Position numbers and translations under genes: made by a program
Shown: positions 14,125 through 52,835 of the stretch, piece by piece
Layout: the number at the start of each line of letters is the position of its first letter
Position numbering within the stretch: position 1 is the stretch's first letter
Notes under the pieces: model-generated
Seen by the model: only the letters and a program-made list of their open reading frames with translations
Told to the model about the DNA's origin: nothing
The model's database searches: none
Assembly (NCBI GenBank): GCA_018238155.1
Contig: JABCTZ010000032.1
Span: forward strand, 192,001-256,000
Source: Candidatus Heimdallarchaeota archaeon
GTDB lineage: Archaea; Asgardarchaeota; Heimdallarchaeia; JABLTI01
Length of the DNA: 64,000 nt
Reading direction: 5' to 3'

Positions 14125-17100
14125 CTATTCTAGTGGAACAATCGTTAGTTTTACTTTTGTTCCATCTATATCCCAATCTGATGAAATACCATCTTTCTTT
14201 GCGCCAACTTTGATAAGTGTTGATAATGTTTCTGTTTTAATGAACTCTGCCCACTTATTCATAGCATTGGTAATTTTTTCATCACCTTTATAGTAAAGTT
14301 CAATATTTTGAGTGTATTCAAGATTTGCTTCTTTCCTCATAGTTTGTACTCTCCGAACAATGTCTCGGACAAGTCCTTCTTGGATAAGTTTTGGTGTTAA
14401 TTTCGTTTTAATGAAAATCTGTCCACCATCAAAGGAAGCATCTGAATATCCTTCTTTACCACTTGAGATTATATCCAAATATTCTTCGTTAACATCAAAT
14501 ACTCCATCTTCTGTTTCTAGTTTGAAGGAATGTTTCTCTCTTATATCTGTAACCGCTTTCTGAGATTTTTCATCTGAAAGATCTTTAATTGCATTTCCTA
14601 CTACATGAGCATTTTGTTTGAACGCCGGTCCTAGAAGTTTGAATTTTGGTTTTAATTGATAGTTAACCATTTCAGAAAGCTCTACTTGGAATGTAATCTC
14701 CTTTATATTGAGTTCTTCTTTGATTTCTGTTAAAAATTGTTTAGCCATTTTTTGTTGAGCTTCAGAGCAAACAACAATCAATTCTTGTAATGGTAATCTA
14801 ACTTTGATGTTAGCTTTATTTCTTGCAGCTCTACCTGCTTCAACGATAGCAATAGTACAATCCATAGCTTTCTCAAGATGGATGAGGATTGCTTTGGGAT
14901 TTTTCTTTGGAAATGCTTCATAGTGAACGCTCAGCATTTCCTTCTTTTTCTTTCCCTTCTCTAATCTTCTAACGAGATTTTGATATAATTCCTCAGCAAC
15001 AAATGGGATAAAAGGTGCGATGATCTTAGTTATCCTTACAAGAGTTTCATACAATGTAGCAAGAGCGTCTTTTTTATCTTTAGTTATTTCTGAGTTCCAG
15101 AATCTTCTTCGTGATCTTCTGATATACCAATTGCTCAAATCTTCAACAACGAATCTATCAATTGCTGCTGCAGCTTTATGAGATTGGAATTCATCTAAAT
15201 TTTCACTTACAGTAACAACTAAAGAATTCAATTTAGAGATTAACCATTGATCTAAAACTGATCTGTCATTTAATTTACTCTCAATAGTTCTTGGATCAAT
15301 ATCATCAATATTGACATTTGTTACAAAGAAGGAATAGACATTCCAGAGAGTGCTGAAAAATCTTCTTCGTGTATCTTCGATAACTTCATTTGAGAAACGA
15401 GTAGGATTCCAAACCGGCGATGAGAAGAAATACCACCTCATTGGGTCTGCTCCTAAAGTATCATAAACCGAAGAAGGGTTTACAACATTTCCAATATGTT
15501 TGCTCATTTTAACTCCTTTCTTGTCAAGAACATGGCCCATAGTTAGGCAGTTTAAATAAGCCGGTTTATTGAAAACAGCAGTACTAATTGCTAGCAAAGT
15601 ATAAAACCATCCTCTTGTTTGATCAATAGCCTCAGTAATAAAATCTATAGGATAATGCTCTTCGAATTTCTCTTTATTTTCAAAGGGATAATGCCATTGA
15701 GCAAATTGAGATGCACCGGATTCATACCAACAGTCGATTACAAAAGGTTCTCTCTTCATCTTTTTACTACATTCGGGACAGAACAAGTCAATTTCATCTA
15801 TCCATGGTTGGTGTAGCTCGAAATCTTCTGGAAGTTCTTTTTTCATATATGACTTTAATTCTTCCACTCCACCAATACAAACTGTCTTATCACAAGTACA
15901 CATCCAAATTGGCAAAGGTGACCCCCAGAATCGCTCACGGCTGAGTGCCCAATCAACAATATTATCTAAGAAATCACCAAAACGACCGTGTTTCAAATGA
16001 GCAGGAACCCAATTGATTTGTTCATTTGTAGCAAGAATTTGCTCACGCAATGTACTCATTCTAATAAGCCAAGCTTCTCGAGCATAATACATTGTGGGTG
16101 TTTTGCATCTCCAACAAAAACCACTTGTATGTTTTGATGTTTTTTCTGTAATTAAACGCTCATCATCTCTAAGTACTTTAATGATAAGTTTATCCGCATC
16201 TTTAATGAACATTCCAGCCCAAGGAGTTATTTCTTCTGTAAAGGTTCCATTTGTTTTGACGGGTTGTAAGAATGGAAGGTTCTTTTGTAATGCAAGTTCG
16301 TAATCTTCTGGACCAAATGCTGGCGCTGTGTGAACAATACCAGTTCCATCTTCTGTACTAACAAAATCAGCTGTAACTACTCTAAATCCTTTCTTTGCTT
16401 CTTTCGCAGGAAGTTTTGCATATGAGAATAATTGTTCATATCGCATTTCTTCCAAATCTTTTCCTTTCATTTTTTCTATTACTTTATAATCATTATTTGG
16501 AAATATTGTAGAAAGTCTATCTTTTGCGAGAATGTACATTTCATCTTCACGTTGGATTTTAACATAATTGATATCTTTTCCAACTGCGAGACCCACATTA
16601 GAAATTAATGTCCATGGAGTTGTTGTCCAAGCTAAAAAGAAGGTGTTTTTTTCTCCTTCTTTAGTAAACTTAATTGTGATTGATGGATCACTTGTTTCCT
16701 TCAACCCTTGTGAATACTCGTGACTACTTAGAGTTACCTCACATCTCGGGCATGATGGAATTACTTTATATCCTTTAATGAGGAGTCCTTTGTCCCATAA
16801 ATCCTTCAAACTCCACCAGACGGATTCAATATAGTTATCCTCCATGGTAATGTAGGCATTATCCATATCGATCCAGAAACCAACTCGTCTGGTCATCTCT
16901 TCCCAATCGCTAACATATTTCATAACTGACTTTCTACATCTTTGATTGAATTTCTTAATACCATAATCAAAAATTTCGGTTTTTGAATTTAATCCCAATT
17001 CTTTCTCAATTTCAATTTCTACTGGTAGACCATGACAATCCCATCCTCCAATTAGAGGTGAAACAAAGAAACCGTTCATAGATTTATAACGAATATAGAG

Positions 17101-29804: not shown

Positions 29805-29905
29805 GGATCCGTAGCGCAGTTTGGATAGCGCATCTGCCTCCTAATGTAAAACTATAAACAGGAGAAAGTAGAGGGTCGTGGGTTCAAATCTCACCGGATC
29901 CGCCA
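29805..29905 (+). tRNA. tRNA-Arg(CCT) with 23-nt intron at 37/38 (29844-29866)
   Basis: Acceptor stem GGATCCG/CGGATCC, D-stem GCGC/GCGC, anticodon stem TCTGC/GTAGA, BHB helix CTCC/GGAG, T-loop TTCAAAT, encoded CCA. Confidence 0.93.
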
Positions 29906-49559: not shown

Positions 49560-49698
49560 CTGGCCCTAACTCAGCTTGGCTAGAGTGCTCGGCTGTAGAC
49601 TTAGTTCGCTCCAATGAAACGTGATTTGGAGTCAGCCTGTATTCGACTGCTAGACAGTGACCGAGATGACCCGAGTTCAAATCTCGGGGGCCAGACCA
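49560..49698 (+). tRNA. tRNA-Tyr(GTA) with 61-nt intron at 37/38 (49599-49659)
   Basis: Acceptor stem CTGGCCC/GGGCCAG (C1-G72), D-stem ACTC/GAGT, anticodon stem CTCGG/CCGAG, BHB helix CTGT/ACAG, T-arm CCGAG-TTCAAAT-CTCGG, encoded CCA. Confidence 0.95.
49599..49659 (+). ncRNA. Candidate intron-encoded H/ACA-like guide RNA (K-loop hairpin)
   Basis: Stem GCTCCAA/TTGGAGT capped by U.U, G.A and A.G pairs (K-loop), then CAGCC antisense to tRNA positions 30-34, and ACA 3 nt from the intron end. Confidence 0.45.
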
Positions 49699-52513: not shown

Positions 52514-52835
52514 TTGTATGTGTTTGGTAAATTAAGGGCTATTGTTTTAAATGAAAATTAAAAGTGTCGATTATATTGGTACAATTGGAACGACTTCAAT
52601 ACACTAAAATTTTAAACCGAATCCTGATGCTGATAGTACATTCCTAAATATCAAATCAATTATATCAATTCTAGATGAGATTTGGTATCACAATTAATAA
52701 AAGTTGAAACAATTCTACTTTTTAGAAGTTTAAATAGTTTAATTCAGTATGCTATTATATGATAAAAAATAACCTAAAATATAGATGGCATAAATCTTTT
52801 AAGTTTTACAGACTATTTTTCATTGGGGAAAACTT

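Follow-up and report, generated by a model that had tools for sequence, protein, structure and literature searches.

A tRNA-Tyr intron of a Heimdallarchaeota archaeon with the predicted features of an H/ACA-like guide for pseudouridine 35 of its own precursor

The window analyzed here is a stretch of 64,000 nucleotides of contig JABCTZ010000032.1 (assembly GCA_018238155.1) from a Candidatus Heimdallarchaeota archaeon. It harbors a tRNA-Tyr(GUA) gene that was missed both by ARAGORN with default settings and by the Rfam tRNA model. The gene was recognized by direct reading and by ARAGORN with introns allowed (option -i), which returned the anticodon gta and a 61-nt intron. The D and T arms can be read in the sequence and the discriminator is an A. 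A preliminary description of this DNA had named the intron and a series of elements within it, all of which are indeed present, as listed here.

49560-49698, + strand: tRNA-Tyr(GUA) gene, CCA encoded (direct reading and ARAGORN -i)
49560-49598, + strand: exon 1 of tRNA-Tyr
49560-66/49688-94, + strand: acceptor stem CUGGCCC/GGGCCAG (read from the sequence)
49591-49595, + strand: G30-G34 of the tRNA, target strand of helix PS2 (pairing counts in 77 sequences; minimum free energy [MFE] fold of the pre-tRNA)
49593-98, + strand: C32 U33 G34 U35 A36 G37 of the anticodon loop (read from the sequence)
49595-97, + strand: anticodon G34 U35 A36 (read from the sequence)
49596-49597, + strand: U35, the proposed target, and A36, the sole unpaired nucleotides of the predicted three-way junction (following from the supported helices)
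49598-49607, + strand: mini-hairpin PS1, with pairs G37(49598)-C49607 and A49599(intron nucleotide 1)-U49606
49599-49659, + strand: tRNA-Tyr intron, 61 nt, at the canonical 37/38 position (ARAGORN with introns allowed)
49606-07, + strand: 5' guide UC (read from the sequence)
49608-49632, + strand: P2, the "GA stem" with its apical K-loop (L7Ae-type site), 10 stacked layers, loop AACGU
49608/49632, + strand: closing pair of P2, G49608.U49632
49609-14/49626-31, + strand: Watson-Crick stem of P2, CUCCAA/UUGGAG
U49615.U49625, G49616.A49624 and A49617.G49623, + strand: non-Watson-Crick pairs of P2, around the loop AACGU (49618-22)
49633-49637, + strand: 3' guide CAGCC, directly abutting P2 and complementary to G30-G34 (49591-95)
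49646-49658, + strand: small hairpin ACUG/CAGU, optional, sequestering the BHB strand in the junction fold
49650-49659, + strand: 3' strand of the rival splicing (BHB) fold, with CUAG 49650-53 facing 49600-04 and ACAG 49654-57 facing C32-U35
49654-56, + strand: ACA, 21 nt past the stem and 3 nt short of the intron end
49660-49698, + strand: exon 2 of tRNA-Tyr

Over-long tRNA calls of 91-98 nt were also made in the window at 15170-15260 (-), 29805-29902 (+) and 52517-52608 (+), one of them with an odd 4-base anticodon. These are probably further intron-bearing tRNA genes that default tools handle poorly.

The intron hairpin has the geometry that had been described for it, namely that of a K-loop of the L7Ae type. 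Its strands 5'-AUGA...GUGAUU-3' correspond to a C'/D'-type K-loop, with tandem sheared G.A pairs, a U.U pair and then Watson-Crick pairs. K-loop hairpins of such strength occur 411 times in 8.16 Mnt, counting both strands of this genome, which gives an expectation of about 0.003 per 61-nt stretch. This low expectation, together with conservation and covariation of the hairpin in 77 introns, rules out a chance origin.

We compared the tRNA-Tyr intron with those of the 11 other intron-bearing tRNAs called by ARAGORN in this genome for which the sequence could be inspected. Those introns measure 26-32 nt, the tRNA-Tyr intron being twice as long, and all of them are plain hairpins in which the K-motif is absent. 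Since the K-loop is confined to Tyr among the called tRNA introns, the module is tied to tRNA-Tyr and not to splicing in general. A separate ARAGORN call outside the window, a "tRNA-Tyr(ata)" with a 26-nt intron, lies about 0.7 kb downstream of cbf5 (contig C21:131469-131587) and looks like a mis-called multi-intron tRNA of other identity.

In a BLAST-type search, homologues were full-length within the genus and family and partial in more distant relatives. All of them keep an intron hairpin with the signature xGA...(R)UGAx although the stem sequence differs (CUCCAA/UUGGAG, CUCCGA/UCGGAG, CACCUC/GAG(U)GUG, CACUUG/CAAG(U)UG and CCCUUG/CAAGG(U)G). A covariance model consisting of the anticodon stem and the hairpin detected the module in 48 of the 83 genomes of the class under strict filters, and in further genera under lax ones. 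Other families of the phylum have a true K-turn, equally oriented and with a distal stem of 3-5 bp, in place of the K-loop, and the two forms interchange without any change of orientation. An exact-pattern scan was run on 185,579 species genomes; among the matches listed were Promethearchaeota/Lokiarchaeia, Thor-, Hermod-, Hod- and Heimdallarchaeota metagenome-assembled genomes (MAGs) and, outside Asgard, MAGs labeled as Woesearchaeota/Nanoarchaeota and Nitrososphaerota. The homologue set used below comprises 77 distinct introns from Heimdall, Loki, Thor, Hermod and Hod lineages as well as from DPANN and Nitrososphaerota MAGs. The comparison of relatives' introns that had been suggested as a check thus came out in favor of the proposal, in that the K-loop and the 3' guide are conserved and the hairpin stem covaries across these 77 introns.

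The module is not found in every lineage. In family f8, the intron is a plain long hairpin without it, and many families of the phylum gave no match to the covariance model; these may have no intron or an intron of another type. In genus g5 (L014, G058, approximately 1446-1506), the PS1 mini-hairpin and a K-turn hairpin are kept and the 3' guide is absent. At its end, the L014 intron repeats the anticodon-loop sequence (CUGUAGAC), and this variant does not fit the pocket model as it stands.

Several tRNA-Tyr genes encountered in the search deserve separate mention. Two contigs labeled as Methanosarcinales MAGs (L223 and L177) carry a tRNA-Tyr with a K-turn intron; the L223 tRNA-Tyr is nearly identical to the Woesearchaeota/Nanoarchaeota type, which suggests that the contigs are mis-binned. 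Two loci of the same genus as the archaeon studied here (L006:560-700 and L009:1442-1611) carry an additional intron (AAAAUCUGAUGGUCAGAUUUUUU..., about 30 nt) that separates the variable region from the T stem. This second intron is not present in the tRNA-Tyr gene of the window, and an extra T-loop intron is also seen in tRNA-Tyr genes of family f3 and in some of family f2. Finally, a sister genome contains a second, degenerate tRNA-Tyr-like copy (L063, G009:C77:21330-21550) in which the anticodon loop reads CUAUAGA and both the K-loop hairpin and the guide are decayed; it is probably a pseudogene or the remnant of an integration site.

To examine the pairing of the intron with the anticodon arm, 44 distinct class-level introns were parsed by anchors independent of the pairing under test. 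G37 lies opposite an invariant C, and the nucleotide preceding that C is paired with i1, the first of the intron, in 44/44. The five nucleotides 3' of the hairpin pair with G34, U33, C32 and G31 in 44/44 and with G30 in 33/44, and the closing pair of the hairpin is G.U, A-U or G-C. The same pairs were then counted in the alignment of all 77 sequences, built from a model restricted to the hairpin and the anticodon stem, from which PS1 and PS2 were absent. G37 and its C are paired in 77/77, position 30 and the guide in 62/76, and the remaining pairs are distributed as follows.

i1-N pair: paired 77/77 (AU 54, UA 16, GC 3, GU 3, CG 1)
Hairpin closing pair: paired 77/77 (GU 56, AU 18, GC 2, UA 1)
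G34 with the guide: paired 77/77 (GC 67, GU 10)
U33 with the guide: paired 77/77 (UA 74, UG 3)
C32 with the guide: paired 77/77 (CG 77)
G31 with the guide: paired 77/77 (GC 64, GU 13)

Each pair of the P2 stem shows 17-46 double changes over the 77 sequences. The covariation score is 0.353 against a shuffle mean of 0.132, none of 500 shuffles reaches the observed value and the score is at most 0.07 with slid partners; relatedness of the sequences inflates these figures, yet the five types of i1-N pair are spread across different families and are independent events. For PS2, the tRNA side is invariant, and a true compensatory change can therefore not be demonstrated in this helix. The changes on the guide side are all wobble-preserving transitions (C/U opposite G, A/G opposite U), giving the variants CAGCC, CAGUC, UAGUC, UAGCC, UAGUU and UGGC. 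PS2 is longer in several lineages, reaching 6-8 bp (CAGCCGG with positions 28-34; UAGUUGGG with positions 27-34), and it is present in the MFE fold of the whole pre-tRNA. A pairing of the 3' guide with the 5' flank of the hairpin is possible in L001, the locus of this species, alone and was ruled out as an explanation of its sequence.

Taken together, the comparative data indicate that PS2, PS1 and P2 form a three-way junction in cis, of which U35 and A36 are the sole unpaired nucleotides. The preliminary description had recognized that CAGCC abuts the stem and is complementary to positions 30-34, and positions 31-34 are indeed paired in every intron. It had also proposed that U35 and A36 stay unpaired, and this follows from the helices supported by comparison. 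As for the 5' guide, it had paired UC with G37 and A38. The pairing does begin at G37, and by covariation the partner of U49606 is nucleotide 49599 of the intron and not A38. In PS1, a possible extra pair C49600-G49604 would leave U49605 bulged.

The loops of PS1 measure 3-8 nt in relatives, many of them being UUU or GNRA, and loops this short argue that the pairing is intramolecular. This bears on the idea that the excised intron, linear or circular, would persist as a stable L7Ae RNP and act in trans on another RNA such as rRNA. We consider this very improbable: the 5' guide covaries with nucleotide 1 of its own intron, which adjoins the exonic G37, PS1 loops down to 3-4 nt imply a hairpin in cis, and the 3' guide matches the invariant anticodon arm.

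We next compared the junction with the known architecture of archaeal H/ACA guides. By the definition of Toffano-Nioche et al. 2015 (PMC4652768), the "GA stem" starts with the pair that closes the pocket and comprises all layers up to and including the second G.A pair. Every crystal structure of an H/ACA RNP shows 10 such layers, as do 14/15 productive P. abyssi guides, altered lengths are deleterious, and 3' guides measure 5-6 nt; the Sso1 guide for Psi35, for instance, has a "10/5/9" fold (PMC4652768). P2 of the tRNA-Tyr intron is made of the closing G.U pair, six Watson-Crick pairs, U.U, G.A and A.G, and hence of 10 layers. The same number is found in 43/44 class-level introns, with one bulged nucleotide in two families. 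The K-turn forms elsewhere have either 10 layers or 9 plus one bulged 3' nucleotide beside the G.A pairs, a variant that is also accepted for Pyrobaculum guides (PMC4652768). Furthermore, the upper stem with its K-turn or K-loop is conserved in the 77 sequences and its stem covaries, U35 occupies the 5' position of the unpaired "UN", as an H/ACA pocket requires, and a bipartite guide that frees the target U and the next nucleotide is present in cis, with a 5' duplex of 2-4 bp.

Two defining features of H/ACA RNAs are missing, which argues against a guide. There is no lower stem of 7-9 bp, its place being taken by the 3-8-nt loop that joins the 5' guide to the substrate, and there is no conserved ACA or ANA box 14-16 nt 3' of the closing pair. 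The module is therefore not a canonical member of the H/ACA family. The ACA that had been proposed as the H/ACA box, located at 21 nt, is confined to L001 and L002, the loci of this species and of its closest relative. Other relatives read GCAG, GCGG or GUAG at this position, and the BHB fold accounts for the ACA. Likewise, the basal stem CU-AG/CUAG that had been drawn below the hairpin is specific to L001 and L002 and belongs to the BHB fold. As the caveats attached to the original proposal had stated, the ACA lies within the BHB strand ACAG, the 5' guide spans 2-4 bp and the pocket-to-ACA distance is 21 nt. As the loop of PS1 occupies the place of the lower stem, a guide acting in cis topologically cannot have one. 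Precedents for both absences have been published: Pyrobaculum H/ACA-like guides have no lower stem, and 14% of them are devoid of any ANA/NCA box (PMC4652768). In assays with Haloferax and M. jannaschii components, the ACA of a single-hairpin guide was dispensable if the typical "UN" was unpaired, and pairing on the 3' side of the pocket weighed more than pairing on the 5' side (PMC7075261). By analogy, these results would make the two departures less severe, and the module seems H/ACA-like in every feature that is open to testing.

A box C/D guide was ruled out. The intron has a single K-motif, terminal C (RUGAUGA) and D (CUGA) boxes are absent, and the strands flanking the K-motif are paired with each other for 7 bp. 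Two crude descriptor scans of this genome for canonical H/ACA sRNAs gave only AT-rich, probably spurious matches.

The intron also has the hallmarks of an archaeal BHB intron. It is located at 37/38, and ACAG (49654-57) forms a 4-bp helix with C32-U35, with the bulges AG/A and UG/A (U G / A38 on the 3' side). In relatives, the 4-nt strand reads ACAG, GCAG, GCGG, GUAG, GUGG or AUGG and pairs 4/4 in 30/44 and 3/4 in 13/44. The 4-bp CU-AG/CUAG stem is the outer BHB helix and is not conserved. The BHB fold is incompatible with the junction because the 5' splice site lies inside PS1 and because positions 30-34 cannot sit in two helices simultaneously. The two folds are nearly iso-energetic on a 78-nt fragment of the anticodon arm (-13.0 kcal/mol for the junction and -12.3 kcal/mol for the BHB fold), and the unconstrained optimum of this fragment includes PS2 and P2. 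In addition, a hairpin that holds the BHB strand (ACUG/CAGU here, CUGC-loop-GCAG in several congeners) is found in part of the genus and not beyond it; in the junction fold, such a hairpin can keep this strand engaged. The junction itself might be taken for a variant BHB, with PS2 as central helix, the bulge U35-A36-G37 and cleavage at 36/37. This reading was ruled out, as the last intron nucleotide is not conserved as a G.

The conserved, covarying three-way junction and its 10-layer ruler make an H/ACA-like guide acting in cis the best reading of these data. We thus hypothesize, and regard as somewhat probable, that the intron acts in cis, as an H/ACA-like guide devoid of an ACA, to direct Psi35 formation in its own pre-tRNA-Tyr. 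According to this model, the anticodon arm and the intron would fold before splicing into the junction of PS2, PS1 and P2, in which CAGCC (49633-37) would pair with G30-G34, and UC (49606-07) with G37 and nucleotide 1 of the intron to give PS1, capped by a short loop. L7Ae would bind the K-loop, and Nop10-Cbf5(-Gar1) would dock on P2 as in H/ACA RNPs. At the base of P2, U35 would be exposed in the 5' position of the unpaired "UN" and would then be isomerized to Psi, presumably by Cbf5. The PS1 loop would stand in the topological place of the lower stem, so that both this stem and the ACA box would be absent. The RNA would finally refold to the BHB, with the anticodon stem restored, C32-U35 paired with ACAG 49654-57 and 49600-04 with 49650-53, and the intron would be excised. 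We propose modification, refolding and splicing in this order.

The same two folds could serve a purpose other than modification. In an L7Ae-bound conformational switch operating without Cbf5, the junction would hide the 5' splice site in PS1 and remove G30-G34 from the anticodon stem, and would thereby control folding or the timing of splicing, delaying or ordering intron removal in tRNAs with several introns. The mutually exclusive folds of similar energy, each of them conserved, are in line with such a switch, as are the extra hairpin sequestering the BHB strand in some relatives and the heavy interruption of Asgard tRNAs (PMC11291895). Genus g5, which retains the K-turn without the 3' guide, fits it as well, and its K-turn and PS1 without a 3' guide count against a guide, as does the 2-4-bp length of the 5' guide. 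However, a switch leaves three observations unaccounted for: U35 and A36 are precisely the nucleotides without a partner, the K-motif is placed exactly 10 layers above these two in 43/44 introns, and the module is restricted to tRNA-Tyr among the called introns of this genome. For these reasons we regard it as unlikely.

The cis guide would require the proteins of an H/ACA RNP. The genome encodes Cbf5 (TruB_N, TruB_C_2, PUA and DKCLD domains; 426 bits to the NCBIfam Cbf5 model), Nop10, a weakly matching Gar1-like protein, L7Ae and L30e. It also encodes Pus7/TruD, a protein of 422 amino acids (contig C41:322533-323729, outside the window; minus strand of locus L031:1195-2460). An absent or degenerate Pus7/TruD had been suggested as a check of the guide proposal, and this expectation was not borne out. 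In M. mazei TruD (PDB 1Z2Z), motif II is GTKDKRALT; here it reads GTKDKMAHT, with a Met in place of the second basic residue and with the first one and the catalytic Asp retained. The basic residue of motif IIIa is intact as well, so that a guide making up for a failing enzyme is not obviously called for. Judged from these motifs, no defect of the kind seen in Sulfolobales is apparent (comparison with PMC2651775). Pus7/TruD was found in 80/83 genomes of the class and 143/151 of the phylum. Over the 40 phylum genomes compared, the second basic residue of motif II varies widely, whether or not the intron module is present, and families of Asgard archaea show DKT, DAH, DSN, DKC, DKF, DHT, DAF and DAW next to the usual DKR/DRH. 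A Pus7 deficiency as the driver of a guide is therefore not supported: TruD is present in nearly all of these genomes, its catalytic Asp and motif IIIa basic residue are kept, and loss of the second basic residue of motif II, seen here (DKM) and in many lineages, occurs with or without the intron.

An intact-looking Pus7 in 80/83 class genomes speaks against the guide, as archaeal Pus7 needs no intron and is able to make Psi35 in intron-less tRNA-Tyr in vitro (PMC2651775). In S. islandicus, aPus7 makes Psi13 only and the H/ACA RNA sR115 makes Psi35 (PMC11077068); given this division of labor, the presence of Pus7 is no argument against a guide.

Alternatively, the junction could present U35 to stand-alone Pus7, with L7Ae only stiffening the scaffold and Psi35 formation depending on the intron as in eukaryotes (PMC2651775). 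The Pus7 gene is present and appears catalytically competent, and the target context U33-G34-U35-A36-G37 is invariant. On the other hand, archaeal Pus7 modifies intron-less tRNA-Tyr in vitro (PMC2651775), and the 10-layer ruler is a feature of Cbf5-Nop10-L7Ae (PMC4652768). Moreover, U33 and G34 of the Pus7 consensus are base-paired within the junction, and the degeneration of motif II, which varies (DKM here; DAH or DKC, among others, elsewhere), shows no clean link to the intron. We know of no partnership between L7Ae and Pus7. This alternative thus seems quite improbable to us.

The closest counterparts of the proposed guide are the stand-alone H/ACA guides of Sulfolobales, which make Psi35 by pairing with the anticodon stem-loop and the intron of pre-tRNA-Tyr (PMC2651775; PMC11077068). 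The Psi35 guides of Sulfolobales and Aeropyrum (Sso1, Sto1, Sac1, Mse2 and Ape7; sR115 in S. islandicus) address the same uridine as the one proposed here. Their target segments are likewise the anticodon stem-loop 5' of U35 and G37 plus the intron 3' of it, and they share the K-turn-capped upper stem, the 10-layer GA stem and a 3' guide of about 5 nt (PMC2651775, PMC4652768, PMC11077068). However, they are encoded by separate genes, act in trans and have a lower stem of 9 bp, with the ACA lying 14 nt from the pocket, whereas the guide proposed here lies within the intron of its substrate, with a loop-closed PS1 and neither a lower stem nor a conserved ACA. The H/ACA-like sRNAs of Pyrobaculum (sR203-sR210) resemble it in the K-turn hairpin between two guides, the truncated or absent lower stem and an ANA box that is degenerate or absent in part of them, and some have a bulged nucleotide beside the G.A pairs, as do Loki and DPANN introns (PMC4652768). 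Unlike the tRNA-Tyr intron, they act in trans through long single-stranded guides, mostly on rRNA, and are not intron-borne.

Eukaryotic Pus7 makes the same modification in the same tRNA and in the intron-containing precursor only, but it does so as a protein-only enzyme that reads sequence and structure context, with no K-turn and no guide pairing. Another tRNA intron, that of euryarchaeal tRNA-Trp, is a box C/D guide aimed at its own pre-tRNA. In N. equitans, the intron of tRNA-Met is C/D-like as well (PMC3491384), and both are similar to the present intron in that a tRNA intron carries an L7Ae-binding guide module. The tRNA-Trp intron directs 2'-O-methylation by fibrillarin-Nop5 through C/D and C'/D' boxes and single-stranded guides, whereas in the tRNA-Tyr intron a single K-motif tops a closed stem and terminal C/D boxes are absent. 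In the published literature that we searched, no description of such an intron-borne guide was found.

Tentatively, and with somewhat less assurance than for the intron studied here, these observations may be joined into a broader reading. Pre-tRNA-Tyr introns of many archaea (Asgard, DPANN and Nitrososphaerota) would carry a self-contained, ACA-less H/ACA-like guide that recruits L7Ae-Nop10-Cbf5 in cis for Psi35 formation and whose fold then switches to splicing. This would be the first pseudouridylation guide acting in cis and possibly the ancestor of the eukaryotic rule by which Psi35 depends on the intron, and the near-universal tRNA-Tyr intron of eukaryotes would be a relic of an archaeal guide.

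If Cbf5 does act at U35, this would represent the first RNA-guided pseudouridylation in cis and the H/ACA counterpart of the tRNA-Trp C/D intron. A minimal H/ACA architecture would then consist of a K-motif, a 10-layer stem and a 5-nt 3' guide, with no lower stem or ACA. Such an activity would also assign a role to this long and conserved intron in the archaea most closely related to eukaryotes, and the reason for the wide retention of the tRNA-Tyr intron together with intron-dependent Psi35, a long-standing question, would become directly testable.
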